Shown here in pieces: positions 4,360 through 30,799 of a stretch of DNA of 32,000 nucleotides (positions are counted from its first letter, which is position 1; every line of letters starts with the position of its first letter). The stretch comes from Mycolicibacterium smegmatis. Lineage in GTDB: Bacteria > Actinomycetota > Actinomycetes > Mycobacteriales > Mycobacteriaceae. The stretch spans positions 4,650,001 to 4,682,000 of the forward strand of contig NZ_LN831039.1 in the NCBI RefSeq assembly GCF_001457595.1, in the 5' to 3' direction. The translations under genes were made by a program, and so were the position numbers. The notes under the pieces were generated by a model. It was not told the DNA's origin and ran no database searches. It saw only the letters and a list, made by a program, of their open reading frames with translations.

Positions 4360-4372
4360 TTGGAGCGAACAC

Positions 4373-5287: not shown

Positions 5288-6096
5288 GCGGCAGGCGCCG
5301 CGTCGCGGTGGTCACGGGCGCGGCGTCGGGCATCGGCCTCGCGACTGCTTCTGTCCTGGCCCGTGACGGCGCCGATGTGGCGTTGTTCTCACGCCCGCAG
5401 GACGATTTCGGCCCCGCCGAGCGCCTCGTCGCACAGAACGGCGGTCGCGCTCTCCCCCTGGGCCTGGACATCGGTGACCGAGAGGCCGTCACAGAGGCGT
5501 TCGACAAGGTCGAAGCCGACCTTGGGCCGATCGACCTGGTGCACAACAACGCGGGCATCTCGATCGTGGCACCCCTTGTCGAGACCACCGACGACATGTT
5601 CGATCAGCTGATCCGGACCAACCTTGCCGGATCCTTCTACACACTGCGCGAGGCGGCGCGCGTCATGCAGCCACGCCGGCGCGGCGCAATCGTCAACACC
5701 GCTTCCGAACTGGCCATCATCGGCCAGGCCGGCTACGTGGCCTATACCGCCACCAAGGGCGCAATCCTCGCGATGACGCGTAGTGCGGCGGCCGAACTGT
5801 CCTCGTGGGGGATCCGGGTCAACGCGGTGTGTCCCGGCACCACAAGGACGCCGATGTTCCTGGCCGAGTTCGACGGTGCCACCGACCCCGCGGCCGAGCT
5901 CGCCGACAACGAGGCGAGCGTGGCCATGGGCCGGATCGCCGAACCGCGGGAAATCGCCGAAGCCGTCGCGTTCCTGCTTTCCGATCGTGCCGGATACATC
6001 ACCGGCACCCACGTGGTTGCCGATGGCGGCCGCACCACCTGCATCCCAGTCGGCACCATCGGCGTTGCTGCGCAACAACACTCATCGAAACGGTAG
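5284..6096 (+). CDS. SDR family oxidoreductase (classical short-chain dehydrogenase)
   Basis: Internal ATG at 5284 forms an ATGA overlap with the upstream stop. Motifs: VVTGAASGIGLA, HNNAGI, YTATK. The N-terminal 130 codons of the 4894 ORF are an Arg-rich shadow inside the epimerase gene. Confidence 0.9.
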   Translation: MSGRRRVAVVTGAASGIGLATASVLARDGADVALFSRPQDDFGPAERLVAQNGGRALPLGLDIGDREAVTEAFDKVEADLGPIDLVHNNAGISIVAPLVETTDDMFDQLIRTNLAGSFYTLREAARVMQPRRRGAIVNTASELAIIGQAGYVAYTATKGAILAMTRSAAAELSSWGIRVNAVCPGTTRTPMFLAEFDGATDPAAELADNEASVAMGRIAEPREIAEAVAFLLSDRAGYITGTHVVADGGRTTCIPVGTIGVAAQQHSSKR

Positions 6097-6108
6097 AGAG
6101 GCACCGAT

Positions 6109-7524
6109 ATGACCAAACCCGACGCACCGCCCGTCGAGCGCGACACCCGGACTCGGCTCGAACAGCTGGGCTACAAACAGTCCCTCAAACGCCGCCTCAA
6201 CGTCGCCGAGGTTGTGGGATTGGCGATGGCGGACGTCTCGCCCACGATGGCCGTACTGTTCCTGTCCGCAGGCGTGTTCTTCGTCGGTGGCACCTTCTCG
6301 ATCGGCGCGGGCTTGATCTTGTCGGCCGTCGTCGTGCTCATAGCCCTGTGTCTGGCTGAACTTGCCGCGATGTTCCCGATCGCAGGCGGCATGTACTCAC
6401 TGGTGCAGAAGATCCTGCCGGGCCCGTTCGCCTGGGTCACGATGTTCAACTACCTGATTCAGGGAATCGTCATCCCGGCCAGCATCGCGCTGGGCATGGT
6501 CGCATTCTTGAAGGATCTGTTCCCCGCGCTCACGATGCCCGACCCTGTCCTGGCTGTCATCCTGCTGGCGGTCGCCACCGCCGTCGCACTCACCACGGTC
6601 GAGGTCGGTGCATGGGTGACCGCGATCATGGTCGTCGTCGAGTTGGCCGTCCTCGGCATCATCACGGTCGCCGCGTTTGCGCAGCCCCATCAGTCGATCG
6701 CCGAGGTGACCTTCCACCCGACGGTGCTCAGCAATGGCGAACTCATCGGCGTCGGCTTCGGGGTGATGCTCGCGACGCTGGCACCTGCCTTCAATGTGAT
6801 CAACGGTTACGACGCGTCATTGGGCTTCGCCGAAGAACTCAAGGGCGGCGAGCGCAAGATCGGTAAGGCAGTTGTCATCTCTGCGGTCCTGGCCTGTGTG
6901 TTCATCATGGTTCCGCTGACCGCCGCGGTGATCGCCGCCCCCGACCTCAAAGAGTTCTTCGAAGCCCCCTCTCCGGTGGTGTATTCGGTGGAGGCGTCCC
7001 TCGGCTCGAAAGCGGGCGCCATCGTCGACATAGGCGCCACCATCGCTTTGTTCAACGGAATGCTGGCGCTGCTCATGTATTTCGCGCGCGGTGTCTACAC
7101 CACTGGACGCGACCAGGCCTGGCCGCCTGCCGTCAACAGGTTGGTCGGCAAACTCAACCGCTTCCGCGCACCCGGCGCCGGGGTCATGGTGCTGGCTGTC
7201 CCCGCCGCGGTCCTGGTGTTCACCTCCGCGCTGAACTTCCTGATCCTCTTCGCCGGCACGGTGATCGCCGCGGTGTACTTCTGCATCGGACTGGCCGCGC
7301 TCTGGAGTCGCCGCAGCATGCCCGATGAGCCCCGGCCCTTCAAGATGCCGTTGTGGCCGGTGCCACCACTGATCGTCGTCATCTTCACCGGAGTCGCACT
7401 CGGCATGCAAGAGACCGACTATCTCATCGCCGAACTCATCTTGATCTGCCTGGCACTGGCGTGCTGGGCCGGATCGAAGCGATGGTCGCGCCCCGCCGCA
7501 CGTGATCATGACGTCGACGCCTGA
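6109..7524 (+). CDS. APC superfamily amino acid / polyamine-type permease
   Basis: 471 aa and strongly hydrophobic, with about 12 predicted helices by eye. Typical APC N-terminus (LKRRLNVAEVVGLAMADVSPT). GAGAGG RBS before the ATG. Confidence 0.85.
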   Translation: MTKPDAPPVERDTRTRLEQLGYKQSLKRRLNVAEVVGLAMADVSPTMAVLFLSAGVFFVGGTFSIGAGLILSAVVVLIALCLAELAAMFPIAGGMYSLVQKILPGPFAWVTMFNYLIQGIVIPASIALGMVAFLKDLFPALTMPDPVLAVILLAVATAVALTTVEVGAWVTAIMVVVELAVLGIITVAAFAQPHQSIAEVTFHPTVLSNGELIGVGFGVMLATLAPAFNVINGYDASLGFAEELKGGERKIGKAVVISAVLACVFIMVPLTAAVIAAPDLKEFFEAPSPVVYSVEASLGSKAGAIVDIGATIALFNGMLALLMYFARGVYTTGRDQAWPPAVNRLVGKLNRFRAPGAGVMVLAVPAAVLVFTSALNFLILFAGTVIAAVYFCIGLAALWSRRSMPDEPRPFKMPLWPVPPLIVVIFTGVALGMQETDYLIAELILICLALACWAGSKRWSRPAARDHDVDA

Positions 7525-7561
7525 ACGCGACACACCAGGAGAAATCGGGAAGGAGCCCCCC

Positions 7562-8350
7562 GTGGTCACCGAAACCAGGACCACCCTCTACCAGAACCTG
7601 ACCTGGCCAGAGATTTCCGAGGCTGCGCACGACGGAACACCTGTCGTCATTCCCATCGGGGCCACCGAACAGCACGGGCATCACCTTCCGGTGTGCACAG
7701 ACTGGGTGCTGCCCGAACGCATCCTGCTGGAGGCCAGCAGGCACCGGCACTTCCTGGTCGGCCCGTTCATCCCGTTCGGGTACCGGAGCAGACCGGGAAG
7801 TGGTGGCGGGCAGCATATCCCGGGTACGGTATCGCTGCGGGCGACCACCTTCATGTCCATGTTGGAAGATGTTCTCGGCGAACTGATCCGCACCGGGTTC
7901 ACCAAGATCGTGTTGTACAACTGGCATTTCGAGAACAGCGGCTTCGTCTACGAGCCGGCGTTCATGGTCAGTGATCGGCACCCGGACGTGAAGATCGTCG
8001 TCATCGAGGATGTCAATCCGGAGTACACCCCTGAGCGGGTGGGACAGATCTGGCCGGACGAGTTCCCAGGTCTGGCATTGGAACACGCCGCGGTGATCGA
8101 GACCTCCTTGTGGATGCATCACTGTCCGGATCTGGTGCGCATCGGCGGCATCGCACCTGATCGCCCGCAACGTGTGGTCAACCACGATGTCCTCCCGATC
8201 GACCACAGGCTGTCCACCGCAAGCGGCGCGCTGTCCTCGCCGGTGCCCGCATCCGCCGACAAAGGCAAGCTGCTGACACAGTGGTTCGTCGAGCGGATCC
8301 TGAATGTGTTGGCGGACGAGTTTCCCACCACTGCCGGCGCAACAGGATGA
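7562..8350 (+). CDS. Creatininase (creatinine amidohydrolase) family protein
   Basis: Family signature VVIPIGATEQHGHHLPVCTDW. I prefer the GTG at 7562 because GGAAGGAG lies 7-8 nt upstream. The ATG at 7502, overlapping the permease by 23 nt, is the alternative. Confidence 0.85.
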   Translation: MVTETRTTLYQNLTWPEISEAAHDGTPVVIPIGATEQHGHHLPVCTDWVLPERILLEASRHRHFLVGPFIPFGYRSRPGSGGGQHIPGTVSLRATTFMSMLEDVLGELIRTGFTKIVLYNWHFENSGFVYEPAFMVSDRHPDVKIVVIEDVNPEYTPERVGQIWPDEFPGLALEHAAVIETSLWMHHCPDLVRIGGIAPDRPQRVVNHDVLPIDHRLSTASGALSSPVPASADKGKLLTQWFVERILNVLADEFPTTAGATG

Positions 8351-9300
8351 CCGCGGGCCCGATCGGGGCGGTGCCTGCCACCGAGGTCCCCAGATACGCA
8401 GGAAAAGCGACCTTCGCCAGGATCGCCGACATCCACGAAGTCGCCGACTATGACATCGCGATCCTCGGAGTGCCGTTCGATGGCGGAACGTCCTACCGAC
8501 CGGGTGCCCGATTCGGGCCGATGGCCGTACGGCAGGCCGCCAGAACACTCCGCCCGGACTTCCACGTCGAGTTAGGTGTCGCACCACTGCGGACCGTGCA
8601 GGTCGTCGACGCCGGGGACGTGACGGTCACGCCATATGACATCGAGACCGCGTGCACGCAGATCCAGGCACACGCCACCGAGATCCTCGGCGGCGCCGAC
8701 CGCAGGATCATCTCCATCGGCGGTGACCACACCATCGCACTGCCGAACCTACGAGCGTTGCACGCGGGTCACGGTCCGGTCGCCCTCGTACACTTCGACG
8801 CCCACCTGGACACCTGGGACACCTACTTCGCCGCGCCCGTCACCCACGGCACCATTTTCCGCAGAGCCTTCGAAGAGGGCCTCCTGGTCGAGGACCACTC
8901 GATCCACATCGGTATCCGAGGCCCGATCTATGACCGCGCGGACCTCGACGACGACGCCAGAATGGGGTTCCGGATCATCCGGGCGGGCGACCTGGACGTC
9001 GTCGGCATCGACGCCGCGGTCGACGCCGTGAAGCGTCGTGTCGGTGACACGCCGGTCTACCTGTCGGTGGACATCGACGTCCTCGACCCGGCGTTCGCCC
9101 CCGGGACGGGAACCCCCGAGTCCGGTGGACTGAGCGCTCGCGAATTGCTCGGCATGCTTCGGCGACTCAACGGCCTGAACCTGGTGGGCGCCGATGTTGT
9201 CGAGGTGGCTCCGGCCTACGACCACGCAGAGATCACGTCTGTCGCCGCCGCAACAGTGGTGTTCGATCTCGTTTCCCTGATGGTGAGAGGGTCCGGGTGA
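8347..9300 (+). CDS. Ureohydrolase (arginase/agmatinase/guanidino-acid hydrolase) family protein
   Basis: Mn-binding motifs GGDHTIALP, HFDAHLDTWD and SVDIDVLDPAFAPGTGTPESGGLS. The ATG at 8347 forms an ATGA overlap with the creatininase stop. Confidence 0.9.
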   Translation: MTAGPIGAVPATEVPRYAGKATFARIADIHEVADYDIAILGVPFDGGTSYRPGARFGPMAVRQAARTLRPDFHVELGVAPLRTVQVVDAGDVTVTPYDIETACTQIQAHATEILGGADRRIISIGGDHTIALPNLRALHAGHGPVALVHFDAHLDTWDTYFAAPVTHGTIFRRAFEEGLLVEDHSIHIGIRGPIYDRADLDDDARMGFRIIRAGDLDVVGIDAAVDAVKRRVGDTPVYLSVDIDVLDPAFAPGTGTPESGGLSARELLGMLRRLNGLNLVGADVVEVAPAYDHAEITSVAAATVVFDLVSLMVRGSG

Positions 9301-9347
9301 GCCGGGTGATCACGTCCGCCGTGAGTGCGGATCACGCGATGTGACAT

Positions 9348-9375
9348 TGTCTTGCGTATCGCGTCTTCCTAATGT
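9348..9375 (+). promoter_or_regulatory. Putative sigma-70-type promoter for the 9400-15650 operon
   Basis: TTGTCT (9348-9353), a 16-nt spacer, then TAATGT (9370-9375, fits TANNNT). GGAG at 9387-9390 lies before the ATG at 9400. This is a hexamer match only. Confidence 0.25.
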
Positions 9376-9399
9376 CGGGCGTATGCGGAGATTCGAAGG

Positions 9400-10416
9400 A
9401 TGAGCCGGGCCCGGCGCAGTGACGGTCCGGTGATCGACATCCACTGTCATCGCGAATGCGGGCCGGCCGCCGAGTTCATGGCCGACGCCGCGCGGGCAGC
9501 GGGAAAAGTGGCGCTGGGACACGGCAATCCGACCACCCAGGCGGTGAACCGGCGCCAACTCGCATTGATCCGGCCCAAGATGGACTTCCTCGACGTCCGG
9601 CTCGCCGACATGGACCGCATGGGCGTGGACATCCAGGCGGTCGCGGTCTCGGTGTACCAGTACTACTACTGGGCCGACGCCGAACTCGGTGCCAAGGTCG
9701 CACGGATCGTCAACGAGGAACTCGTCGAGTCGACATCGGCACACCCCGGCCGGTTCCTTCCACTGGGCACCGTGCCGCTTCAGGACACCGAAGCAGCGAT
9801 CGCCGAATTACGCTATCTGGCATCAGAACTCGGCATGCGCGGCATCGAAATCGGCACGCACGTCGAGGGTGAGGAGATCTCGAGCCCGCGGCTGGAACCG
9901 TTCTGGGCCGAGGTCGAGGCGCTCGGTCTCGTCGTCGTCATCCACACGCAGGGAGCCACGCACCCCCAGCGACTGGCAGACCACAATTTCGTGAACATCA
10001 TCGGCCACGCGTTCGAGGCCACGCTGGCCACCGCGCATCTCATCTTCGACGGTGTCGTGGCGCGCCACCCCGATCTGAAGATCGTCGTCGTGCACGGCGG
10101 CGGCTACCTGCCCGCGTATGCCGGACGCATCGACCACGGCTGGAATGCGCGCGACGACGTCCGCGAAGGGGTTCCCGAACTCCCAAGCCACTATCTGCGC
10201 AAGTTCTACTTCGACACCATGGTGTTCGAACCCGACCAACTCGAATACCTCATCGGCAAGTACGGCGCCGACCACGTCGTCCTCGGCACCGACTACCCGT
10301 ACGACATGGGTGACGACGATCCACTCGGGCTGCTCGGAGAAGTCCCCGGACTGGATCAGGCCAAGGTCGATCTCATCGCAGGCGGAAACGCCGCACGACT
10401 TCTGGGGTTGTTATGA
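9400..10416 (+). CDS. Amidohydrolase_2 (ACMSD/LigJ-like, COG2159-type) family protein
   Basis: N-terminal metal motif VIDIHCH. VVHGGGYLPAYAGRIDHGW and LGTDYPYDMG are typical of the family. Confidence 0.85.
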   Translation: MSRARRSDGPVIDIHCHRECGPAAEFMADAARAAGKVALGHGNPTTQAVNRRQLALIRPKMDFLDVRLADMDRMGVDIQAVAVSVYQYYYWADAELGAKVARIVNEELVESTSAHPGRFLPLGTVPLQDTEAAIAELRYLASELGMRGIEIGTHVEGEEISSPRLEPFWAEVEALGLVVVIHTQGATHPQRLADHNFVNIIGHAFEATLATAHLIFDGVVARHPDLKIVVVHGGGYLPAYAGRIDHGWNARDDVREGVPELPSHYLRKFYFDTMVFEPDQLEYLIGKYGADHVVLGTDYPYDMGDDDPLGLLGEVPGLDQAKVDLIAGGNAARLLGLL

Positions 10417-11555
10417 GCACACCACTACCTGCGCACGGCTCCGTCGGGCTCGCGGTCATCGGATGCGGCACGGTCGGCAGGATCCGCGCGATGCTGGCAC
10501 GGGAGTATCCCGGCATCGAATGGCTCGGTCTGTGCGACGTCGACGAGCAGGTCCTCAAGGACCTGACCGCCGACACCGATGCCGACTTCGCCACCACGGA
10601 CATCACCGAACTGCTGGCACGGCCCGAGGTGGGCGCGGTCATCATCGCGACCGATGAACGCGAGCACGTCGATCCGATCCTGCGTTCGGTGGAACTGGGT
10701 GTCCCGCTGTTCATCGAGAAGCCACTGGCCACCGATCCGGCGGACTCCGCTCGCGTGCTCGCGGCGATCACCGATGCCGGCGTCGACGCCGTCGTCGGCT
10801 ACACCCAGCGGTTCCGGCGACGATTCCAGACCGTCAAGCAACGCCTACGCGACGGCCAGATCGGTGATGTCACAACGGTCGTCACCCGGGCGTTCATGAA
10901 TCGCATGGTCCCGGAGGCCACCCTGCGGAAGGTGACGGACACGACCAACCTCACCCCCATGGTGGTATCGGGCACCCACAGCCTCGACATGTGCATGTGG
11001 CTGCTGGAGGGCCGAAAGCCGGTCGAGGTGTATGCGCGCTCCACCGACCGCACCCTGGGCCCGATCGGCACCAAGGACGGTACGTCGGGGATCTTCACGA
11101 TGGACGACGGCGTGGTGTTCAGCATGAACATCAACTGGGCGCTGCCGACGGTCTGGCCGGGCGCGGTGTACGGACTGGAGATCGGCATCGTCGGGACCCG
11201 CGGCGTGATCGACATCGAGGACACCCACCGCGACGTCATCCTCGCCTCCGAGATCGGGCAGCCTGCGGGATACAACAGCCGTGGATTCGAGCCACCCGCA
11301 CCCCGGCACGTGGATTTCGTGGGCAGCTATCCCCCGGGCGACGTATCGGACGGCATGTTGTGGGGCCCGATGCGCGAGGAGACCACCACCTGGTTCGCCC
11401 GGATCTGCCGCGGTATCAACACACCACACGCCACCGCGGCAGACGGCCACGCCAACCTGATCCACACCATGGCAATGGATTTGTCCTCGCGGACCGGCCG
11501 CCCCGTTCCCCTGCCGATAGACCCCGGTGAACTCCTCGCCGGACTCAAACCCTGA
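10413..11555 (+). CDS. Gfo/Idh/MocA family oxidoreductase
   Basis: N-terminal Rossmann fold LAVIGCGTVG and the EKP motif (LFIEKPLATD). ATGA overlap with the upstream gene. Confidence 0.85.
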   Translation: MSTPLPAHGSVGLAVIGCGTVGRIRAMLAREYPGIEWLGLCDVDEQVLKDLTADTDADFATTDITELLARPEVGAVIIATDEREHVDPILRSVELGVPLFIEKPLATDPADSARVLAAITDAGVDAVVGYTQRFRRRFQTVKQRLRDGQIGDVTTVVTRAFMNRMVPEATLRKVTDTTNLTPMVVSGTHSLDMCMWLLEGRKPVEVYARSTDRTLGPIGTKDGTSGIFTMDDGVVFSMNINWALPTVWPGAVYGLEIGIVGTRGVIDIEDTHRDVILASEIGQPAGYNSRGFEPPAPRHVDFVGSYPPGDVSDGMLWGPMREETTTWFARICRGINTPHATAADGHANLIHTMAMDLSSRTGRPVPLPIDPGELLAGLKP

Positions 11556-11572
11556 TTCGAAAGGACCCGGGC

Positions 11573-12652
11573 ATGCGCCAGATCAATCTCGGAATCATCG
11601 GAACCGGTTGGTGCGGCGGCATCCGCGCCGTCACGGCGTCGCGAAGCCCACTCGTCGCCGATCTGCATCTCGCCGAGATCAACCCGGCGCGGAGGGCCGA
11701 GATCACCGGACTGACCGATCCGACGTACGTCACCGAGCATTGGCAGGAACTCGTCGAGAATCCGGGCCTCGACGCGATCGTCGTCTCCGCCACACCCGAG
11801 GACCTGCACTACCCGATGACGAAAGCTGCTCTGGAAGCGGGCAAGCACGTGCTTCTCGAGAAGCCCGTGGCCGTGACCCTGGCCGAGGCCGACGAACTCA
11901 TCGCGCTGGCCGAGAGCGCCAACCTCAAGTTCACGATCGGTTACTCGCAGCGGTTCAACGACAAACAGGCCATGATCAAACGGGCCATCAACGACGGTAC
12001 ATTGGGGAACGTCACCAGCATCCTGCTGAGCCGCCACATCACACGATCGCTGGGCGCCAAGATCTCCTCGCGCACAAAGCTGTCCCCCGCTGCCATGGAA
12101 GCCACTCACGATCTCGATTTCGCGTTCTGGTGCCTTGAGCCACGCCGGCCCGTGCGGGTGTACTCGCAGAACGCCTGGGGCGTAAGGGCATCCACCCTCG
12201 GCTCACCCGACACCCAGTACCTGGTGGTGACCATGGACGACGGTGTGGTGGTGACGGTCGGCGCCGGCATGTCCCTGCCGCCGGGCTATCCGAACGCGTC
12301 GACGACCTGGATGGAGGTGATCGGCACCGAGGGCGCGGTGCTCGCCGACGCCAGCCACCGTGACATCGTGCTGAACACCGTGAGCAACGGCGTGCAATTC
12401 CCGTTGTCCACCATGCCCGGCGAATTCGTCGACCACGTGTACTCGGGGCCCATGGAACGCGAGACCACGCACTTCATCGAAGCCGTCGCCTGTGACCGCC
12501 CGGTCCTGGTGGAGGCACGACTCGCGCGCGTCACCATGGAGGTCTACCTGGCCGCCGATCTCTCCGCGCAGCGCAACGAAGTGGTGCACCTGCCGTTGTC
12601 CGAGGAGGACATCCTCCAGACGCAAGCCGAGACGGCCCTGAGCCGCGCATGA
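11573..12652 (+). CDS. Gfo/Idh/MocA family oxidoreductase (paralogue of the preceding gene)
   Basis: LGIIGTGWCGG, VLLEKPVAVT, AAAGGA RBS. Confidence 0.85.
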   Translation: MRQINLGIIGTGWCGGIRAVTASRSPLVADLHLAEINPARRAEITGLTDPTYVTEHWQELVENPGLDAIVVSATPEDLHYPMTKAALEAGKHVLLEKPVAVTLAEADELIALAESANLKFTIGYSQRFNDKQAMIKRAINDGTLGNVTSILLSRHITRSLGAKISSRTKLSPAAMEATHDLDFAFWCLEPRRPVRVYSQNAWGVRASTLGSPDTQYLVVTMDDGVVVTVGAGMSLPPGYPNASTTWMEVIGTEGAVLADASHRDIVLNTVSNGVQFPLSTMPGEFVDHVYSGPMERETTHFIEAVACDRPVLVEARLARVTMEVYLAADLSAQRNEVVHLPLSEEDILQTQAETALSRA

Positions 12653-13725
12653 CCGATGCGGCCGAGTGGTGGCCGGAACTGGCGCCGCGCATCGAGACGT
12701 CGCGCGCACCCAAACCGCCCGGCACCTGCGTGGACGCCCACACCCACCTGTCGGTGAAACCCGCTGCGGCACTCGCGAAACCATACTTCCGCCCCGAATA
12801 CGAACCGCGGTCGCTGTACTCGTCGGAGGAGACCACGCGCTACAACGCCGAATACCGCGCGAGCCCACTCAACACCGCACAGTTCGAGGAGGCCGAGCAA
12901 CGCCTGGCCGACATGGACGCCCAGGGCGTCGACATCCAACTGCTCGCGGTGCCACCGACCGAGTACTTCTATTGGCTTCCCGAAGATGAGGCGTTACAGG
13001 CCAACCGGATTCAACACGAACGCATCGCCGAGGTGGTGACGACATGGCCGACCCGGTTCGCCGGGGTGGCCAACGTCCCGATGAACTACCCCAAGCTGGC
13101 GGTGGAGACCCTGCGGGAAGCGCAGCGTGAGTTCGGCTTCCACGGCGTCGAGATCAGCGCCGACGTGCTGGGCCTGGATCTCGACGACCGGCGGTTCGAT
13201 CCGTTCTGGGAGGCTGTCGTCGAACTGGACATGACGGTGATCCTGCATCCCCAGGGATTCACGCACGGCCAGCGGTTCACCGACTACTACCTGGTGAACG
13301 TCATGTGCATGCCGTTGGCCTCCACGCTGGCCGTGACGCGGATGATCCTCGGCGGTGTATGGAGGCGTCACCCGCACCTGCGCGTGCTGGTGGTGCACGG
13401 CGGCGGGTACCTGCCGTTCTACATCGCACGTACCGACCACGCCTGGCGGGTGCGGCCCGAACTGCGCCATCATCTCGACATCCCGCCGAGCGAGGTGCTG
13501 CGCTCGATCTATGTGGACACCAACGTGTTCGATGCGCGGATGGTCGAGCAACTCGTACGCGACCTGGGTGCCGATCACGTGGTGATGGGCACCGACTACC
13601 CGTTCGACATGAGCACGGTCGACCCGGTCGCGTTCCTCTCCGGAACACGAATGTCCGAGGATGACCGGGCACAGGTGCTGGGCGGCAACGCGATCCGCCT
13701 GTTCAAGATCGACGCGGCACCATGA
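12649..13725 (+). CDS. Amidohydrolase_2 family protein (paralogue of 9400-10416)
   Basis: CVDAHTHLS, VVHGGGYLPFYIARTDHAW, MGTDYPFDM. ATGA overlap with the upstream gene. Confidence 0.85.
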   Translation: MTDAAEWWPELAPRIETSRAPKPPGTCVDAHTHLSVKPAAALAKPYFRPEYEPRSLYSSEETTRYNAEYRASPLNTAQFEEAEQRLADMDAQGVDIQLLAVPPTEYFYWLPEDEALQANRIQHERIAEVVTTWPTRFAGVANVPMNYPKLAVETLREAQREFGFHGVEISADVLGLDLDDRRFDPFWEAVVELDMTVILHPQGFTHGQRFTDYYLVNVMCMPLASTLAVTRMILGGVWRRHPHLRVLVVHGGGYLPFYIARTDHAWRVRPELRHHLDIPPSEVLRSIYVDTNVFDARMVEQLVRDLGADHVVMGTDYPFDMSTVDPVAFLSGTRMSEDDRAQVLGGNAIRLFKIDAAP

Positions 13726-14762
13726 TGCGTGTTCCCGCCGCGACGCTCGAGCGTTTCGCCGCCGACGCCCTGCGCACGAGCGGCGTCGCGAGCGACCATG
13801 CCGACATCACCGCGCGCCGCCTCGTCGAGGCCGACATGCGTGGACGCACCGGGCACGGCCTGATCCGGCTGCCCTCCTACCTGTCGCGTATCCGGGCGGG
13901 CGGGGTGAACGTGCGTCCCGAGATCGCGGTGCTCCACGAGACACCGGTGTCCGCGCTGATCGACGGCGACAACGCACTCGGACAGGTGGTGATGACCAGG
14001 GCCACCGAGTTGGCCATCGAGAAGGCGCGACAATCGGGGCTGGCGTGGGTGGGCACCGTGCACTCGAATCATGCGGGCGCGGCCGGTCTGTACGCGCACA
14101 TGGCCGCCGACGCTGGATGCGTCGGGATCTACCTCGCCGTGGCCAACGCCAACGGGATGCCGCCCTGGGGCGGGACGAACCCGCTGCTCGGCACCAACCC
14201 GCTGGCGATCGCGATCCCCACCACCTCGACCCCGTTCGTGCTCGACATCGCCACCACCACGGCATCACACGGCACCATCAAAGTGGCTGCCCGCGAGGGT
14301 CGCCCGATGCCCCAGGGGTGGGTCATCGACACGGCGGGCCGACCGATCACCGACCCGTCGAAAGCCCACGAGGGTTTCCTGGTGCCGATCGGCGGCTACA
14401 AGGGTGCCGGCCTCACCATCGCGATCGGCCTGCTCGCCGGCGTGCTCAACGGGGCCGCGTTCGGCGCCGACGTGATCGACCATCGCGTCGACGGGAGCAC
14501 CCCGACCAACACCGGGCAGGCCGTCCTGGTGCTGCGCACCGACCTGTTCCGCCCAAAGCCCGTAGTCCTCGCGGAGCTCACACGTCATCTGGACGCGCTG
14601 CGCGACTCGGGCGCGATCGACGGTGGCCGCGTGAGGCTTCCCGGGGACGAGGCGGCCCGAATGCAAGCCGACGCCCAACGATTCGGCGTGCCGGTGCCGG
14701 ACAAACTCGCCGCGCAACTGCGCGACGTGGCACGTGACACCGGAGTCGAGTCCCCCTTCTAG
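13722..14762 (+). CDS. Ldh_2 (malate/L-lactate/ureidoglycolate dehydrogenase type 2) family oxidoreductase
   Basis: RRLVEADMRGRTGHGLIRLPSYLSRIRAG and SNHAGAAG are typical of the family. ATGA overlap with the upstream gene. Confidence 0.85.
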   Translation: MMRVPAATLERFAADALRTSGVASDHADITARRLVEADMRGRTGHGLIRLPSYLSRIRAGGVNVRPEIAVLHETPVSALIDGDNALGQVVMTRATELAIEKARQSGLAWVGTVHSNHAGAAGLYAHMAADAGCVGIYLAVANANGMPPWGGTNPLLGTNPLAIAIPTTSTPFVLDIATTTASHGTIKVAAREGRPMPQGWVIDTAGRPITDPSKAHEGFLVPIGGYKGAGLTIAIGLLAGVLNGAAFGADVIDHRVDGSTPTNTGQAVLVLRTDLFRPKPVVLAELTRHLDALRDSGAIDGGRVRLPGDEAARMQADAQRFGVPVPDKLAAQLRDVARDTGVESPF

Positions 14763-14774
14763 AGAGGACGACAC

Positions 14775-15650
14775 ATGAAACTCGCCACCTATCGGCGGCC
14801 AGGGGGCGCCCCCGAGATCGGTGTGGTCGACGGAGACAAACTGGTGCCGCTCACCGCCGAGGACGGCTTCCCGCCCACCATGGTGGAGTTCGTCGCACTT
14901 GGCGCCGAAGGTCTGCGTCGTGCGGCGAAGGTGGCGGCCACCGCGCCCCGTATCGCGGCCGGCACCGTCCGGTTACTGGCACCGATCCGTCCGCACAACA
15001 ACGTGATGTGCGTGGGCAAGAACTACCATGACCACGCCGAGGAGTTCGCGGGCAGCGGTTTCGACGCCAGCCAGAAACAGGTGGTTCCCGACATCCCGGT
15101 GATCTTCACCAAGGCGCTGTCGTCGATCGTCGGTCCGGGTGACGAGGTCCGCGTGAGCGATGACCCCACGCACACGAGCGATTACGAGGGCGAACTCGCG
15201 GTGGTGATCGGCGAGGGCGGGCATCGGATCGCCGCGGCGGATGCGTTCGCACACGTCTACGGCTACACCATCGTCAACGACGTCACGATCCGCGATCTGC
15301 AGAAGCGCCATGTGCAGTTCTTCATCGGCAAGAGCGCCGCCACCTACGGTCCGATGGGTCCGGTGCTGGTGACCGCCGACGAGATCGGCGACGTGAACGC
15401 CTTGCGGGTGCAGACCCGGATCAACGGGGAGTTGCGTCAGGACGCACCGCTGGCCGACCTGATCTTCGACATCCCCACGGTGATCGAGGCGATCTCGGCG
15501 GCGGTGCTGCTGCAACCCGGCGACGTGATCGCCACCGGCACACCGGCCGGTGTGGGCATCGGGTTCACCCCGCCGCGTTTCCTGTCGCCGGGCGACCTCA
15601 TGGAGGTCACCGTCGACGGCATCGGCACGCTGTCCAATCCTGCTGTGTAG
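14775..15650 (+). CDS. Fumarylacetoacetate hydrolase (FAH) family protein
   Basis: VMCVGKNYHDHAEE, IFTKALSS, DYEGELAVVIG, YTIVNDVTIRDLQ, ATGTPAGVG. Confidence 0.9.
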   Translation: MKLATYRRPGGAPEIGVVDGDKLVPLTAEDGFPPTMVEFVALGAEGLRRAAKVAATAPRIAAGTVRLLAPIRPHNNVMCVGKNYHDHAEEFAGSGFDASQKQVVPDIPVIFTKALSSIVGPGDEVRVSDDPTHTSDYEGELAVVIGEGGHRIAAADAFAHVYGYTIVNDVTIRDLQKRHVQFFIGKSAATYGPMGPVLVTADEIGDVNALRVQTRINGELRQDAPLADLIFDIPTVIEAISAAVLLQPGDVIATGTPAGVGIGFTPPRFLSPGDLMEVTVDGIGTLSNPAV

Positions 15651-15668
15651 CAGGCAAAACAGCGTGCC
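15624..15668. terminator. Nested stem-loop at the convergent FAH / ABC-ATPase junction (candidate factor-independent, U-tract-less terminator)
   Basis: The outer arm ggcacgctgt (15624-15633) pairs with acagcgtgcc (15659-15668). The inner hairpin pairs cctgct (15639-15644) with agcagg (15649-15654) around loop gtgt. That gives 16 bp in total, and the structure encloses the FAH stop TAG (15648-15650). Confidence 0.45.
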
Positions 15669-15687
15669 GTGCGCCACCCGGTGCGGA

Positions 15688-16431
15688 TCAGGAGACGGCC
15701 AACGCCCCGATGTCTTCGAAGGTCTTGAACACCTCGGCCTTGGTGACGGCCACGTCGGCATCGGCCGGATCACGCGGGAACGGCAGCGTGAGCTTGATGT
15801 CGTCGGCAAGGCGACCGCCCTTGGCGAACACCAGGATCCGGTTCGACAGCTCGACGGCCTCGCCGACGTCGTGCGTCACGAAGACCACGGTCTTGCCGGT
15901 CTCGGCCCAGATGGTGTGCAGTTCGCGCCGCAGCGTGCGCGCCGTGATCGCATCGAGGTGGCTGAACGGTTCGTCCATGAACAGCACATCGGGTTCGGTC
16001 GCGAAAGCGCGCGCGATGCCCACGCGCTGCTGCATGCCGCCCGACAGTTCCCCTGGGTACTTGTCCCCTTTGTCGCCGAGTTGCACCATCTCCAGGTAAT
16101 GCCGGCACCGCGCACGTGTATCGGGCGAGCGGTCCTTCTGGACGAACAGCATGTTGTCCATCACGCTGCGCCACGGCAGCAGCCGGGCGGCCTGGAACAC
16201 GTAGCCCGCGCGTGCCGGCCTGCCGTTCTCCGTGATGCTCACCCGGCCGCTGGTGGGCGTCTCGATGCCGCTGAGGATGTTCAGCAGCGTCGACTTTCCG
16301 CACCCGGACGCCCCGACGATCGATACGAAGGCGTGCCCGCTGATGCTCAGGTTCACGTTCTCCAGCGCGATGACCTTGTCGGCGCCGAGTCCGAATTCCT
16401 TGTGCAGGTTGGTGACAGAGATTTCAGCCAC
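15688..16431 (-). CDS. ABC transporter ATP-binding protein (NitT/TauT, SsuB/TauB-like)
   Basis: Walker A GASGCGKSTLL, signature LSGGMQQRVGIARA, Walker B LFMDEPFSHLD. The GTG start has an AGGAGA RBS embedded in the upstream permease gene. Confidence 0.9.
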   Translation of the reverse strand: MAEISVTNLHKEFGLGADKVIALENVNLSISGHAFVSIVGASGCGKSTLLNILSGIETPTSGRVSITENGRPARAGYVFQAARLLPWRSVMDNMLFVQKDRSPDTRARCRHYLEMVQLGDKGDKYPGELSGGMQQRVGIARAFATEPDVLFMDEPFSHLDAITARTLRRELHTIWAETGKTVVFVTHDVGEAVELSNRILVFAKGGRLADDIKLTLPFPRDPADADVAVTKAEVFKTFEDIGALAVS

Positions 16432-17473
16432 GGTCGTTTCTCCTGTCGTTGTCGGGCGCGCCCGGCGCCGTGGATGGGGGTTGGTCGTCGTTGGGGCCCT
16501 GGGTCACCAGGGTGATGCTGCCCAGCGCCGCGCTGGTGGTGGTGGCGCCGGTCTCGGCCGCCGCGACGGCGGCCTGGGCGGGAGCGTCGAAACGCTCCTC
16601 GACCACGTCGACCGCATCGATCGCCGGGCGCCACTTGAACAGGCGCTTCGACAACTGGTCGAACATGAACTTCTCGAAGATCAGCGCGAAGATGACGAAC
16701 AGCAGTGCATATCCGATGACGCCGTAGGCACGGTGCGCGTCGTACCAGAACTTGATGGTCCAGCCGGCCCCGTCCTGACCACCGAACACCTCGGCGACCA
16801 CCAGGCCCTTCCATCCGAGGGCGAAACAATACCGTGCGGCGGCGAACAGGAACGGCAACAACGACGGGATCAGCACGTGGCGGATCACGCGGTCGCGCGG
16901 CACGCCGAACGCGCGCGCCATGTCGTACAGATCCGTCGGCGTGTTCCGTACGCCCTCACGGACGTTGATGATCACGAACGGAACACCCGTCAGCACCACG
17001 GTGACGATCGGTCCGACGTCACCGAATCCGAAAGCCAGGCTGCAGAACAACGCCCACGCCAGGTTCGGCATCGCCAGGATCGCGACCACCCAGTCGTTGA
17101 AGAACGCGTCGACCGCTTTGGACAGGCCCATCGCGATGCCGATGACGGTTCCGATCACCATCGCGATCAGCATGCCGATGCCCAGCCGCTGCAAGGAGAT
17201 CCCGAACGTCACGTACATGTTGTGCGGCGCCAGGGTGTCACCCCGCAGCTCGTCGGCCATGAAACCGAACACCTGCCACGGTGTGGGCAGGACGTCCACC
17301 GCGAACGGCCAGATGGTGGTGACCGCCTTGATCGCGGCCAGCCAGAACAGCAGGCACACAACCGGGAACAGCAACCGACCTGCCCACGAACTGCGCATCA
17401 ACCACTGCCAGCCCGTGGTGAGGGCCGAGGGGCGCTCGTGGGCACCCACTTCGGAACGCGTCAGAACGCTCAT
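16424..17473 (-). CDS. ABC transporter permease (NitT/TauT family) with a low-complexity C-terminal tail of about 65 aa
   Basis: The internal ATG at 17473 (MSVLTRSE...) forms an ATGA overlap with the upstream permease stop. The product is a multi-span hydrophobic protein. The N-terminal 67 codons of the 17674 ORF are an Arg-rich shadow. Confidence 0.85.
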   Translation of the reverse strand: MSVLTRSEVGAHERPSALTTGWQWLMRSSWAGRLLFPVVCLLFWLAAIKAVTTIWPFAVDVLPTPWQVFGFMADELRGDTLAPHNMYVTFGISLQRLGIGMLIAMVIGTVIGIAMGLSKAVDAFFNDWVVAILAMPNLAWALFCSLAFGFGDVGPIVTVVLTGVPFVIINVREGVRNTPTDLYDMARAFGVPRDRVIRHVLIPSLLPFLFAAARYCFALGWKGLVVAEVFGGQDGAGWTIKFWYDAHRAYGVIGYALLFVIFALIFEKFMFDQLSKRLFKWRPAIDAVDVVEERFDAPAQAAVAAAETGATTTSAALGSITLVTQGPNDDQPPSTAPGAPDNDRRNDRG

Positions 17474-18309
17474 GACTTCAACTCCCCTCGCCAGGCGAAG
17501 AACCGGCGTTCGAGGGATTCCAGCACCACCTTGTCGAGGAACAGCGCGAGGACGTAGAACGCGAGGATCCAGGTGAGGAACTCGTCGAGCCGGAACAGCT
17601 GTGTGGCGGTGCGCATCTCGAACCCGATGCCCTGGGAGGCCGCGAACACCTCGGTCAGCACCGTCACCTTCCACGCGATCGAGAATCCGAACCGCACTCC
17701 GGTGAAGATGAACGGCGCGAGGTGCGGTACGACGATGTGGCGGTTGCGTTTCACCACCCCGACGTCGAACGACCTGCCCATGTCGATGAGATCCTTGGGC
17801 AGCGATTTGATGCCTTCGGCGATGTTCACGGTGATGAGCGCGAACGTGGTCAACACGATCGCGATGATCGGTCCCGCGGTGCGGTTTCCGAAGATTATCG
17901 CGGTGATCAGGGCCCAGATGAGCCCAGGTGTCGTGACACCGATGGTGACCGCGTCGCGGAAGAAGCCGTTGAGAAACCGGTTCTGCATGAGGATGCCGAT
18001 GGCCACCCCCACCACGAACGCGATCGCGAAACCGACCGCGATCCGCGACAGCGTCGTGGCGAACGCCCCGGGCACCTCACCGCTGGCCCAGAGTCGGCCG
18101 AACGTCTCGAACACCGTCGACGGCCCGGGCAGTAACCTCTCGTCCATCAGGTTGCCCGACGCGAGCTCCCAGATGCCGAGGAAGAACACGTAACCGGCGA
18201 TCCGCCAGCCCCACGTCGTGATGCGGTCTCTTCGCTTCGCCGCGCGGACGATGTCCTCTTCGCTCGTCCGCGCGGGGACGTTCGGGGGTGACTCCAAGGT
18301 GGTTGACAC
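17470..18309 (-). CDS. ABC transporter permease (NitT/TauT family)
   Basis: Hydrophobic multi-span protein (WRIAGYVFFLGIWELAS...). I prefer the GTG at 18309 because GAGAGG lies 6 nt upstream. The ATG at 18372, overlapping the SBP gene by 23 nt, is the alternative. Confidence 0.8.
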   Translation of the reverse strand: MSTTLESPPNVPARTSEEDIVRAAKRRDRITTWGWRIAGYVFFLGIWELASGNLMDERLLPGPSTVFETFGRLWASGEVPGAFATTLSRIAVGFAIAFVVGVAIGILMQNRFLNGFFRDAVTIGVTTPGLIWALITAIIFGNRTAGPIIAIVLTTFALITVNIAEGIKSLPKDLIDMGRSFDVGVVKRNRHIVVPHLAPFIFTGVRFGFSIAWKVTVLTEVFAASQGIGFEMRTATQLFRLDEFLTWILAFYVLALFLDKVVLESLERRFFAWRGELKS

Positions 18310-18349
18310 AAGTCGCCTCTCGTCTATCGATGAACTCGTCGTGTACGGG

Positions 18350-19414
18350 TCACGAGGTCTTCGCCGCCTCATAGCGCGGGGTCGGGGCGTCGGGGGCCAG
18401 ATAGTTCGCGTTCGCGGGGTTGAGCTGCTTCATCAGGTTCCAGATCTCGGTTTCCGCCGGGATCCAGGCCGGGTCGAGCGCAACCTTGTCGACGAACCAG
18501 TTGTTGTCGCCGGACATGAATTGGATGAGCCAGTCGATGTCCTCGGAGCTCTCCACCGAGAAGTGTTGCGGGTACTTGCGAATCACGTCCGCTTTCTGCT
18601 CCTGGAACATGTCGACGCCCTGCTGCCAGAGGTCGAGGAACTTGATCGCGAGGTCGGGGTGCGCGTCGTACCACTCCTCGGTCGCGGTGAAGGTGTTGCC
18701 CACGACGTGCAGCTGGTCGTCGCTGTTGGGTGCGAACTCCTTGTACAGCTGGAACGGCAGCTCACCGCCGTACATGATCTCGAGCTCACCCTTGCGCAGC
18801 TGCGGCACGGCTGCCTCGGGAATGACAGCCGCGGCTTCGCAGTCACCGCGCAGCAGGTTGGTCGGGTTCACGAAGTGGTCGTTGACGAGAAGATCGAAAT
18901 CGCCGCCGCCGACGCGGTAGTCGAGGCCGTGCATCTGCTGGGCCAGCACGGTCCAGAACGCGGTGTTGGAGGTGGGGCCGGACACGCAGATCTTCGAGCC
19001 CTTCGGGATGTCCTCCAGCGTCTCGTACGGATCGCCTGCCCGTTTCAGCATCGGGACCCGCTGGTAGTTGTATTTGCCGAAGGTGACGGTCTTGATTCCG
19101 GTCTGTTGTTCGAGAACCGGGACTTCCTGCGTGGACATCGAGACGATGTCTCCGTGCCCGCCGGCGAAGTAGGTGAACTCGTCCCACGTCGAGCTGGTCT
19201 CGATCCGGATGTTGTTCTCCTGCTCCCACTTGGCCCTGGTTCCCGAATCGGTCAACAGATCCCATACCGGATCCGGTGCGAACGCGAACCTGATGACCTG
19301 CGGTCCGCCGGACTCCTGCTCGCCGGATTTCCCGCATCCCACGAGCGCCGTCAGCGCGAGTGCCGCGGCCCCAGCCACACACGCCGCTTTCCTGGCCGCT
19401 TTCTTGACCTTCAC
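18350..19414 (-). CDS. ABC transporter substrate-binding lipoprotein (NitT/TauT / SsuA-NMT1-like)
   Basis: Signal peptide plus lipobox MKVKKAARKAACVAGAAALALTALVGC. GTG start at 19414. Confidence 0.85.
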   Translation of the reverse strand: MKVKKAARKAACVAGAAALALTALVGCGKSGEQESGGPQVIRFAFAPDPVWDLLTDSGTRAKWEQENNIRIETSSTWDEFTYFAGGHGDIVSMSTQEVPVLEQQTGIKTVTFGKYNYQRVPMLKRAGDPYETLEDIPKGSKICVSGPTSNTAFWTVLAQQMHGLDYRVGGGDFDLLVNDHFVNPTNLLRGDCEAAAVIPEAAVPQLRKGELEIMYGGELPFQLYKEFAPNSDDQLHVVGNTFTATEEWYDAHPDLAIKFLDLWQQGVDMFQEQKADVIRKYPQHFSVESSEDIDWLIQFMSGDNNWFVDKVALDPAWIPAETEIWNLMKQLNPANANYLAPDAPTPRYEAAKTS

Positions 19415-19420
19415 GGTGGT

Positions 19421-19427
19421 CCTCCTT
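19421..19427 (-). promoter_or_regulatory. Shine-Dalgarno AAGGAGG for the substrate-binding protein gene
   Basis: Plus-strand cctcctt is AAGGAGG on the minus strand, 6 nt upstream of the GTG at 19414. Confidence 0.7.
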
Positions 19428-19669
19428 CATGCACGACAGATTGTGACGCGTGCCACTCAGTACAGTGCCAGCTTTCGGATTGACCTATGTCGGCGTCCGT
19501 GAATTTCGCCAGCGGTGGGTGTCGCGGCCTGTGACGTGCACCGAATCCGTCCGGCCACGGTGACGAAAGCCGTGATGTCGGCCCGAGAAATTCGATCTGA
19601 CCGCCACTGATCCGGGGCGCCCACTCACCTTGACTGGACGTGCCTGTCCCTCGCGACCCGGAGGATCCA

Positions 19670-20758: not shown

Positions 20759-20759
20759 C

Positions 20760-23327: not shown

Positions 23328-23418
23328 CCAGATGCACCTCGGTGGGTTGTTCAATGGTGCGACCTGCGTCACACCTTGCCGCGATGGTAGCCGGAAATGG
23401 ATGCATCGTGGGCGCGCC

Positions 23419-24411: not shown

Positions 24412-24611
24412 ATCGAACAGTCAAGGGCCCGGCCGAACCTCGTGCATTGTCGTCGAACGTGAACTTCGCGGCCCGACGTGTCGGAATCCGTCACCGGTCA
24501 AGCGGGCCGTGTCCCCATGCGCCATCGATCCCCGCCCAGATTCACGAAGTCCGTGAGTGATTGCCGGGCGCCGCGCCCGTTCAATTGAGGGCGACAGTGC
24601 TACGACAGGAG

Positions 24612-27580: not shown

Positions 27581-27589
27581 CGGATTTCC

Positions 27590-29764: not shown

Positions 29765-29779
29765 TCAGTCTCTGATCAA

Positions 29780-29809: not shown

Positions 29810-29832
29810 CTGACCCTCCAGCTCTTCGGGTT

Positions 29833-30792: not shown

Positions 30793-30799
30793 GATGGTG

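Follow-up and report, generated by a model that had tools for sequence, protein, structure and literature searches.

The gene set described here lies at positions 9400 to 15650 of a 32,000-nucleotide stretch of Mycolicibacterium smegmatis DNA (contig NZ_LN831039.1; the whole stretch is referred to below as the window), and it is built from enzyme families that are familiar from several described systems. Protocatechuate 4,5-cleavage (LigC/PmdC, LigI, LigJ, LigK), whose end products are at the level of pyruvate and oxaloacetate, combines a Gfo/Idh/MocA (GFO) dehydrogenase with Amidohydro_2 proteins. Non-phosphorylative oxidation of L-rhamnose and L-fucose, which yields pyruvate and an acid, brings together a dehydrogenase, an Amidohydro_2 protein and an FAH-family protein. 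Other relatives are the ACMSD-family decarboxylases, the diketocamphane two-component type II Baeyer-Villiger enzymes together with PcaC and PcaD, and the oxaloacetate decarboxylases YisK, FAHD1 and Cg1458. YisK, an FAH protein of B. subtilis, decarboxylates oxaloacetate, and its active site holds 4-hydroxy-2-oxoglutarate, the decarboxylation product of oxalomalate (bioRxiv 10.1101/2023.06.26.546597).

The M. smegmatis set comprises six genes that we call A1, G1, G2, A2, L and F, which correspond in that order to the families Amidohydro_2, GFO, GFO, Amidohydro_2, Ldh_2 and FAH (Pfam). We conclude that the set is an orphan catabolic pathway made from known enzyme families. Its likeness to the protocatechuate, deoxy-sugar, ACMSD, PcaC/PcaD and diketocamphane systems is at the family level only, and it fails tests of orthology or of marker genes for each of them. 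We found no substrate assignment for the set among curated family models, solved structures or papers. The genes are part of a larger catabolic island in which an organic acid is most likely taken up and degraded by successive rounds of dehydrogenation and decarboxylation. In the specific form that we favor, and to which we give a probability of roughly one in three (0.35), the three dehydrogenase/decarboxylase couples A1-G1, G2-A2 and L-F would take a hydroxylated polycarboxylic or sugar-type acid down to products at the level of pyruvate. The observation behind this reading is that 3 dehydrogenases (G1, G2 and L) and 3 proteins with decarboxylases as their closest characterized relatives (A1, A2 and F) are encoded as adjacent couples.

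The host is M. smegmatis, and all six proteins match NCBI proteins of that species exactly. The segment from 9400 to 15650 contains exactly six plus-strand open reading frames. A1 (9400-10416, 338 residues; PF04909, E = 1.8e-42) is an Amidohydro_2 protein of the ACMSD-like metal-dependent decarboxylase/hydratase branch; G1 (10413-11555, 380 residues; GFO_IDH_MocA, E = 9.7e-16) is a GFO dehydrogenase, dependent on nicotinamide adenine dinucleotide (NAD); G2 (11573-12652, 359 residues; GFO_IDH_MocA, E = 6.7e-20) is its paralogue; A2 (12649-13725, 358 residues; E = 3.2e-35) is a second ACMSD-like Amidohydro_2 protein; L (13722-14762, 346 residues; Ldh_2, E = 4.2e-108) is a 2-hydroxyacid dehydrogenase of the Ldh_2 family; and F (14775-15650, 291 residues; FAA_hydrolase, E = 2.4e-65) is an FAH-family enzyme. 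An earlier examination of the letters and open reading frames alone, which we call the sequence-only reading, had described six coupled genes, with ATGA overlaps at three junctions and gaps of 17 and 12 nt at the other two, and both the open reading frame list and the junctions agree with that description. Read directly, the ATGA start/stop overlaps are at 10413, 12649 and 13722, the 17-nt gap between G1 and G2 (11556-11572) contains an AAGGA ribosome-binding site, and the 12-nt gap between L and F (14763-14774) contains a GAGGA ribosome-binding site.

Inside the block there were no promoter-like sites on either strand and no terminator-like sites on the plus strand. The start codon of A1 is separated by a 99-nt gap from the stop codon of an agmatinase-family gene, and upstream of A1 there is a promoter-like element (9345-9375, plus strand) that consists of CATTGT at 9345-9350, TA at 9370-9371 and GT at 9374-9375, the latter two reading as part of a -10 hexamer TAATGT. 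The pattern CATTGT...TAnnGT was invariant in an alignment of the sequences upstream of A1 from nine actinomycete genera, so that the transcription unit would start at A1. The six genes are thus predicted to form one transcription unit with its own conserved promoter.

The sequence-only reading had also stated that no known pathway fits the set, and our comparisons bear this out. None of the six proteins reached an NCBIfam equivalog cutoff; when most of the neighbors were included, NCBIfam cutoffs were passed only by the unrelated upstream creatininase and agmatinase-family protein and by the flanking RNase Z, and by no tested protein of the island. We found no paper on this gene set, with the proviso that the slashed spelling Gfo/Idh/MocA may escape some keyword searches, and the marker genes of the two precedent routes are absent. 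A1 and A2 share with the ACMSD-family decarboxylases the fold, the aligned catalytic residues and an H-x-H pair, but the 3-hydroxyanthranilate dioxygenase and the aminomuconate pathway are missing here, and there are two paralogues, each beside a GFO gene. With respect to protocatechuate 4,5-cleavage, neither the LigAB dioxygenase nor LigI, LigU or the LigK aldolase was among the annotated open reading frames of the window; there was no match named LigI, LigJ matched only at E = 1e-8 to 1e-12, and the LigC-type enzyme PmdC matched G1 at E = 6.6e-10 only. The rhamnose/fucose route differs in that its lactonase subfamily and its dehydratase are missing here, and F scored 178.5 bits against the 500-bit cutoff of the diketo-deoxy-rhamnonate hydrolase model NF053535. 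F does match the catalytic domain of YisK and carries the same small Rv2993c-like N-terminal domain; the difference is that F is encoded directly after an Ldh_2 gene inside a catabolic operon. Finally, genes further downstream in the island have the family composition of the diketocamphane and PcaC/PcaD systems (a luciferase-like monooxygenase termed LLM, a flavin reductase, a CMD-family protein and a hydrolase), but they differ from them by low similarity, and the window is without catechol or protocatechuate dioxygenase or cycloisomerase genes.

We examined conservation of the set by scanning one genome per GTDB species with an alignment of G1, which confirmed at least 506 loci, and by comparing the window with 15 actinomycete loci from other genera, 41 acidimicrobial or acidobacterial loci and 27 proteobacterial loci (numbered with the prefix L below). 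All 15 actinomycete loci had the six genes, at 61-89% amino acid identity and with their positions in the same order, and this co-occurrence is far beyond chance. A2 kept its slot between G2 and L in 15 of 15 of these loci; it was inverted in place in 8 of them (L001, L002, L008, L010, L011, L012, L015 and L021) and has the same orientation as in the window in the others (L004-L007, L009, L014 and L016). The mirrored order amidohydrolase-GFO-GFO-amidohydrolase, which the sequence-only reading had described, is accordingly not a constant feature. An ATP-binding cassette (ABC) importer stood beside the six genes in 13 of the 15 loci (63-90% identity), and LLM was present in 7 of the 15, some loci ending at contig edges.

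A1 and A2 are paralogues (38% identity over 340 residues, E = 5e-77), and both score far above the PF04909 cutoff of 26.4 bits (146.5 bits for A1 and 122.7 bits for A2). Two motifs that had been quoted as common to them were found in both proteins, HGGGYLP.Y..R.DH.W at residue 232 of A1 and 250 of A2, and GTDYP.DM at residues 296 and 314, respectively; the accompanying estimate that about half of the last 85 residues are identical was too high, the count being 34 of 85 (40%). In searches of the PDB the best solved relative of A1 was human ACMSD (E = 4.9e-51), and that of A2 was also ACMSD (E = 1.3e-48). Next came LigW, the gamma-resorcylate and 2,3-dihydroxybenzoate decarboxylases and IDCase, with LigJ and LigY as much weaker matches, and no chain named as a lactonase appeared among the 49 (A1) and 47 (A2) PDB matches at E = 1e-3 or better. 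His182, His232, Arg243 and Asp298 of A1 align to His174, His224, Arg235 and Asp291 of human ACMSD, which are metal ligands, the catalytic histidine and the inter-subunit arginine of that enzyme. An N-terminal H-x-H pair (His15/His17) can be read from the A1 sequence, at a position that falls outside the ACMSD alignment, and the equivalents in A2, by alignment to A1, are His31/33, His200, His250, Arg261 and Asp316. The counterpart of ACMSD Arg47 could not be aligned reliably.

These comparisons place A1 and A2 in the ACMSD-type decarboxylase branch, on the COG2159 side, and not among the lactonases. The sequence-only reading had proposed lactone or ring hydrolysis for them and had suggested the COG2159 versus COG3618 split as a check; since that check puts both proteins on the decarboxylase side, hydrolysis of this kind gives way to decarboxylation or hydration. 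Neither protein would be an orthologue of any named member of the ACMSD family, because no NCBIfam model matched A1 or A2 at E = 1e-3 or better. Homologues of A1 with 75-89% identity were found in Mycolicibacterium, Saccharomonospora, Nonomuraea, Acrocarpospora, Nocardioides, Plantactinospora and Micromonospora, and 3,779 A1-like protein clusters were counted at E = 1e-30 or better.

G1 and G2 form the second pair of paralogues that had been noted earlier (28% identity, E = 7e-45). Both have the N- and C-terminal GFO domains (Pfam), as does a third GFO dehydrogenase of the island, G3, and both carry the GxGxxG motif of the Rossmann domain and an EKP motif (IGCGTVG and FIEKP in G1, IGTGWCG and LLEKP in G2). 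They are far from every solved GFO member (E about 1e-19), and the cutoff of 355 for inositol 2-dehydrogenase IolG (TIGR04380) was missed by G1 (113.6), G2 (123) and G3 (137.9). An AlphaFold model of G1 (pLDDT 77.5) had as its best fold neighbors the inositol, scyllo-inositol/L-glucose, levoglucosan and glucuronide-3 dehydrogenases, at 16-21% identity, and superimposed on the inositol and levoglucosan dehydrogenases with TM-scores of 0.7-0.8. Judged from the model, the fold neighbors of G1 are generic sugar and cyclitol GFO enzymes. G1 is also the most conserved gene of the system, being 66-89% identical across Actinomycetota, Acidimicrobiia, Acidobacteriota and Proteobacteria, and 5,093 clusters of G1-like proteins were counted with E-values of 1e-60 or better. 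A transporter, either TctCBA or an NMT1-type ABC system, adjoins G1 even where the examined flanks hold no other relatives of the set. Its constant place beside the importer, together with a degree of constraint far above that of any other protein of the set, makes G1 the probable entry enzyme.

L matches PF02615 over its full length (361.8 bits), and its best solved relatives are the L-sulfolactate dehydrogenase 2x06 (E = 1.4e-61) and the type-2 malate dehydrogenase 1v9n; it fell below the NCBIfam cutoffs for sulfolactate dehydrogenase (248 vs 500) and ureidoglycolate dehydrogenase (206 vs 356). F scored 220.6 bits with FAA_hydrolase. Its best solved relative was YisK (8sky; E = 2e-75, 257 bits), as compared with 144 bits for the L-2,4-diketo-3-deoxyrhamnonate hydrolase 8gsr, E = 6.7e-34 for Cg1458 (4dbf/4dbh) and about 1e-25 for FAHD1. 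F is therefore not well described as a diketo-acid hydrolase, as had been suggested, and is likely to be a beta-keto-acid decarboxylase or an acylpyruvase, as judged from its relatives. L and F adjoined each other in every actinomycete locus and in several of the acidimicrobial ones. An apparent Ldh_2-FAH fusion in Nonomuraea purpurea (L001, 14364-16111, 527 residues) was set aside after tblastn comparison: the N-terminus of its Ldh_2 part is frameshifted and the C-terminus is truncated, and an error of assembly or a pseudogene is the probable explanation for this Ldh_2 plus FAA_hydrolase open reading frame.

The functional unit goes beyond the six genes and extends over a catabolic island from roughly 9345 to 25766. 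The six-gene boundaries that had been drawn at first exclude an importer, the LLM-CMD-hydrolase unit, G3 and a flavin reductase, all of which adjoin the block and several of which co-occur with G1 elsewhere. Downstream of F, and convergent with it, is a NitT/TauT-type ABC importer on the minus strand (15688-19414; Pfam and NCBIfam), which consists of an ATPase (15688-16431), a permease (16424-17473, with a likely ATG at 17473, as read from the sequence), a second permease (17470-18372) and a substrate-binding protein (18350-19414). The binding protein was modeled (pLDDT 87) with the NMT1/SsuA fold, and its best fold matches were PqqT, Thi5, SsuA, ThiY and TauA, with near-equal scores at 12-15% identity. 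A coupled plus-strand unit follows (19640-22039; Pfam), which encodes LLM (likely ATG at 19670, end at 20758), the CMD-family, PcaC-like protein (20760-21314) and a PcaD-like alpha/beta hydrolase (21311-22039), with a 1-nt gap at the first junction and a GTGA overlap at the second. With LLM, an oxygenase is encoded next to the block. The best solved relative of LLM was 3,6-diketocamphane 1,6-monooxygenase, aligned over its full length (E = 1.4e-20, 77 bits). The hydrolase was closest to the models of the 3-oxoadipate enol-lactonase PcaD and of fused PcaDC (149 bits, vs a PcaD cutoff of 256), and the CMD family match had E = 3e-6.

On the minus strand, at 22023-23372, there is a regulator with a PucR C-terminal helix-turn-helix domain (HTH_30) and a GGDEF_2 domain (Pfam), whose position suggests that it may belong to the system. 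It is followed by G3 (23419-24411, minus strand, 330 residues; Pfam) and by a plus-strand gene (24561-25766) whose product has Flavin_Reduct (41-182), GntR (190-249) and FCD (261-381) domains by Pfam. This fusion, an unusual joining of an enzyme with a regulator, is divergent from G3 and matches the reductase components of two-component monooxygenases (NCBIfam); it is probably the reductase partner of LLM. The exact 11-mer CGTGAANTTCG occurred in the window only at 19498-19508 and 24458-24468, that is, in the divergent intergenic regions between the binding-protein gene and LLM and between G3 and the flavin reductase-GntR gene. Allowing one mismatch, there were 8 matches against 2.5 expected, and the site at 19498 was also conserved in Mycolicibacterium loci. 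These sites hint at a shared operator, which would place the LLM and flavin reductase units under one putative regulator; a link of this type to the A1 promoter was not found. A palindromic GTGAC-N6-GTCAC operator was considered as well and was rejected, its frequency in the window being not above chance.

Among the best 80 of the at least 506 G1 loci, with 66-89% identity, were representatives of Actinomycetota, Acidimicrobiia, Acidobacteriota, Alpha-, Gamma- and Deltaproteobacteria, SAR324 and Chloroflexota. The 41 acidimicrobial and acidobacterial loci contained A1 in 38 cases, G1 in 41, G2 in 39, A2 in 27, F in 26 and L in 7. G2 accompanied G1 in 15 of 15 actinomycete loci, in 39 of these 41, and in 11 of 27 proteobacterial loci. 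The proteobacterial G1 (66-70% identical to that of the window) is found directly behind TctCBA, often with CMD-family and DctP-like genes, and often near relatives of G2, L and LLM and near a G3-like GFO gene, a flavin reductase and a hydrolase. G3-like GFO genes (27-46% identity), which resemble G3 more than G1 or G2, were near G1 in acidimicrobial, acidobacterial and proteobacterial loci, often beside a flavin reductase, and the pairs of LLM with the hydrolase and of LLM with the CMD-family protein recurred with G1 in other phyla. A transporter and G1 on their own were seen in L087 (NMT1-type ABC) and on a Parasedimentitalea plasmid, the single match in a plasmid collection, which held only TctC, TctA and G1.

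In the aggregate, the parts that recur across phyla are G1, G2, a G3-like GFO protein, L, LLM, the flavin reductase, the hydrolase and the CMD-family protein; to these, Actinobacteria, Acidimicrobiia and Acidobacteriota add A1, A2 and F. The same enzyme classes have been assembled repeatedly around G1. One proteobacterial lineage, represented by L085 and L090, has independently brought together G1, an Ldh_2 protein (51% identical), a G2 relative (56% identical) and a pair of ACMSD-like amidohydrolases (36-38% identical), in addition to TctCBA, two beta-hydroxyacid dehydrogenases and an MR_MLE protein; because the amidohydrolases are only 36-38% identical, they appear to be paralogous recruitments. 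Conservation of the island across phyla may reflect horizontal transfer.

Three further observations were made at these loci. In Proteobacteria, a gene of the DctP family (solute-binding proteins of TRAP transporters) starts at or near the stop codon of G1 (L088, 11131-12060; family f17, L057-L081). The protein, of about 309 residues, begins with MKLKLAGYQG, apparently has no signal peptide and is often encoded without adjacent DctQM; it may be a cytoplasmic, binding-protein-like partner of G1. In the L085/L090 lineage (14528-21128), a thiamin pyrophosphate (TPP) riboswitch at 18144-18255 on the minus strand (56.9 bits, vs a gathering score of 54.3) precedes ykoF-ykoEDC-type genes beside the G2-like gene, with a ThiB/ThiP-like transporter next to them. 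The NMT1-type transporter, together with these ykoFEDC and ThiB/ThiP-like genes, suggested salvage of thiamin or hydroxymethylpyrimidine, a possibility that we discarded: the only TPP riboswitch detected is the one that precedes ykoF of L085, and none was found in the window or in four other loci scanned. Also, L083, a 3.8-kb contig of a Bathyarchaeota metagenome-assembled genome, contains a G1 homologue 66% identical to that of the window, which may be a binning contaminant or a cross-domain transfer.

The favored reading can be formulated as follows. The substrate would be taken up by the adjoining ABC importer, or in Proteobacteria by the tripartite tricarboxylate transporter instead. G1 and then G2 would oxidize secondary hydroxyl or hemiacetal groups with NAD+ to give beta-keto or enolizable acids, from which A1 and A2 would strip the activated carboxyl groups, or possibly hydrate the intermediates, by means of the retained ACMSD metal site, catalytic histidine and carboxylate-binding arginine. 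L would convert the remaining malate-type 2-hydroxy acid to a 2-oxo acid, and the YisK-like F would decarboxylate or cleave the product of L to pyruvate-level compounds. LLM, the flavin reductase, the PcaC-like and PcaD-like proteins and G3 would probably serve as an O2-dependent, lactone-forming branch for the same or a related substrate. For ACMSD-family decarboxylases, ortho-hydroxy-aryl substrates such as the ortho-hydroxybenzoates are beta-keto acids in their enol form, and decarboxylation after dehydrogenation is therefore chemically consistent.

Several points weigh against this reading. All of the proposed steps, and the class of substrate likewise, come from comparison of sequences and models. 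To our knowledge, the characterized ACMSD-family decarboxylases act on aromatic, heteroaromatic or muconate-type carboxylates, and with aliphatic beta-keto sugar acids the family would have to accept substrates of a new class. The proposed scheme accommodates LLM, the CMD-family protein and the hydrolase only loosely, in that their relatives and some neighbors point to ring-fission or lactone chemistry; the neighbors in other phyla include muconate-cycloisomerase-like and 4-sulfomuconolactone-hydrolase-like proteins and a monooxygenase of the PRK07236 type, dependent on flavin adenine dinucleotide (FAD). Relatives of A1, A2 and F with at least 45% identity were found in none of the 27 proteobacterial loci, so that coupling of GFO proteins and amidohydrolases is not universal. 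Nor could a ligand be read from the binding-protein model, whose matches place it in the NMT1/SsuA fold and no further.

Of the alternatives, the one that survives best, although we consider it unlikely, is that the compound broken down by the island is an aromatic or N-heteroaromatic carboxylic acid. Examples would be a hydroxypyridine or pyrimidine carboxylate, a compound of the vitamin B6 or pyrroloquinoline quinone (PQQ) type, a pyrone or a muconate derivative. A1 and A2 would then be non-oxidative aryl-carboxylate decarboxylases, the GFO proteins would oxidize hemiacetal or semialdehyde products of ring fission as LigC does, LLM and the flavin reductase would open the ring, and the PcaC-like, PcaD-like and FAH enzymes would process the fission products. 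The decarboxylases closest to A1 and A2 are consistent with this, as is the proximity of the PcaD/PcaDC-like hydrolase to a PcaC-family gene. FAH enzymes typically occur in ring-fission pathways, and monooxygenases of the LLM type that open the rings of pyridine, pyrazine and uracil are known. Yet LLM is closest to a Baeyer-Villiger enzyme, and its solved relatives with E = 1e-5 or better do not include RutA; neither a ring-cleaving dioxygenase nor a ring-hydroxylating oxygenase was conserved with the set; and the fold neighbors of G1 are sugar and cyclitol dehydrogenases. The neighbors in other phyla noted above, to which a succinate-semialdehyde dehydrogenase may be added, speak for ring fission, but the FAD monooxygenase and cupin neighbors are restricted to acidimicrobial and acidobacterial loci, where they are on the opposite strand. 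Similarly, PQQ, pyridoxal phosphate, the thiamin-pyrimidine derivative FAMP and thiamin are the ligands of the proteins that best match the binding-protein model in fold, but these matches have an identity of only 12-15%, and sulfonate binders score almost equally.

A Baeyer-Villiger route for a carbocyclic hydroxy acid or a cyclitol seems to us distinctly improbable. It would have the GFO proteins produce a cyclic ketone and LLM with the flavin reductase convert this ketone to a lactone, which the CMD-family protein and the hydrolase would decarboxylate and hydrolyze; on the opened chain, A1 and A2 would work in the manner of LigJ and LigY, as hydratases or C-C hydrolases, and L and F would finish the degradation. 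The full-length alignment of LLM with the diketocamphane enzyme and the translational coupling of LLM, the CMD-family gene and the hydrolase gene are in its favor, but at 77 bits the match is weak, and the LLM family has many activities. Proteobacterial locus L089, in which LLM, the hydrolase, the flavin reductase and two or three GFO genes occur together, and the LLM relatives near G1 in L057, L075 and L079 also point in this direction, although many loci have A1-G1-G2 without LLM within 10 kb. Inositol dehydrogenases are among the fold neighbors of G1, and the ACMSD family does include the hydratase LigJ and the hydrolase LigY; A1 and A2 are nonetheless far closer to the decarboxylases (E = 1e-51) than to these two (1e-8 to 1e-12).

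There is a small chance that G1 and its partners represent a widespread, possibly horizontally spread pathway with new chemistry for an abundant environmental compound. This could take either of two forms: an O2-independent "split" oxidase-decarboxylase-reductase of G1, A1 and G2 that would shorten sugar-type or tricarboxylic acids, or a first route for a heteroaromatic, cofactor-type acid derived from PQQ, vitamin B6 or the thiamin pyrimidine. Least supported, and very doubtful, is the scheme of the sequence-only reading, in which two oxidations to lactones, amidohydrolase lactonases and a final C-C hydrolysis by the FAH enzyme would follow the model of non-phosphorylative deoxy-sugar routes or of the LigC/LigI steps: the Pfam domain composition matches those precedents, F has its sub-threshold match to the 2,4-didehydro-3-deoxy-L-rhamnonate hydrolase model, and a lactonase-like Amidohydro_2 protein (f11, about 296 residues, closest to 4-sulfomuconolactone hydrolase) accompanies the set in other phyla, but f11 where present is an additional gene and not A1 or A2, no chain of the LigI, fuconolactonase or rhamnonolactonase type was retrieved for A1 or A2 at E = 1e-3 or better, where the top matches were all decarboxylases, a sugar-acid dehydratase is absent from the window, and F is closer to YisK than to 8gsr.

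A separate plus-strand cluster (3442-9300) lies directly upstream of A1. It encodes a polysaccharide-deacetylase/PuuE-like protein, an NAD epimerase, an SDR protein, an APC permease, a creatininase, which scores above its NCBIfam equivalog cutoff, and an agmatinase-family ureohydrolase, and it is preceded by a divergent gene for a PucR-family regulator (1839-3338, minus strand). The cluster has the appearance of a module for scavenging nitrogen from guanidino or creatinine-type compounds. We considered these genes as part of the six-gene system and rejected the idea: in none of the 83 loci under comparison was the set accompanied by the creatininase, the agmatinase-family gene, the permease or the others, and A1 is preceded by a conserved promoter-like element of its own. 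At the outer flanks are RNase Z (879-1838) and a block of transglutaminase-like, Alpha-E and circularly permuted ATP-grasp genes (25763-31975) that ends with a ComEC-type competence gene (30800-31975). We take this transglutaminase-like/Alpha-E/ATP-grasp block to be the Rv2409c-Rv2411c arrangement of M. tuberculosis, in which case rpsT and holA would be expected to lie between the ATP-grasp gene and ComEC. The GC content of the window gave no sign of foreign origin, and the window has no tRNA genes. Published locus tags for strain mc2155 near this site are MSMEG_4556 (lepA), MSMEG_4557-4561 (siderophore-type ABC genes) and MSMEG_4571 (rpsT). Because these tags indicate other genes at the site, the island is probably strain-variable in M. 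smegmatis.

For M. smegmatis, then, the island appears to be a strain-variable accessory trait. Its wider significance lies in its breadth, with at least 506 species genomes and thousands of metagenomic homologues, and in the unusual conservation of G1 across phyla. Assignment of a substrate could give a function to several thousand unannotated genes, and could reveal a carbon source that is important in the habitats and lineages concerned, namely soil Actinobacteria, Acidimicrobiia, Acidobacteriota, and marine and sponge-associated Proteobacteria. It would also provide a worked example of the pairing of dehydrogenase and decarboxylase genes. A substrate assignment would, in addition, test whether ACMSD-type amidohydrolases decarboxylate non-aromatic substrates; if they do, the family would extend to non-aromatic beta-keto acids.

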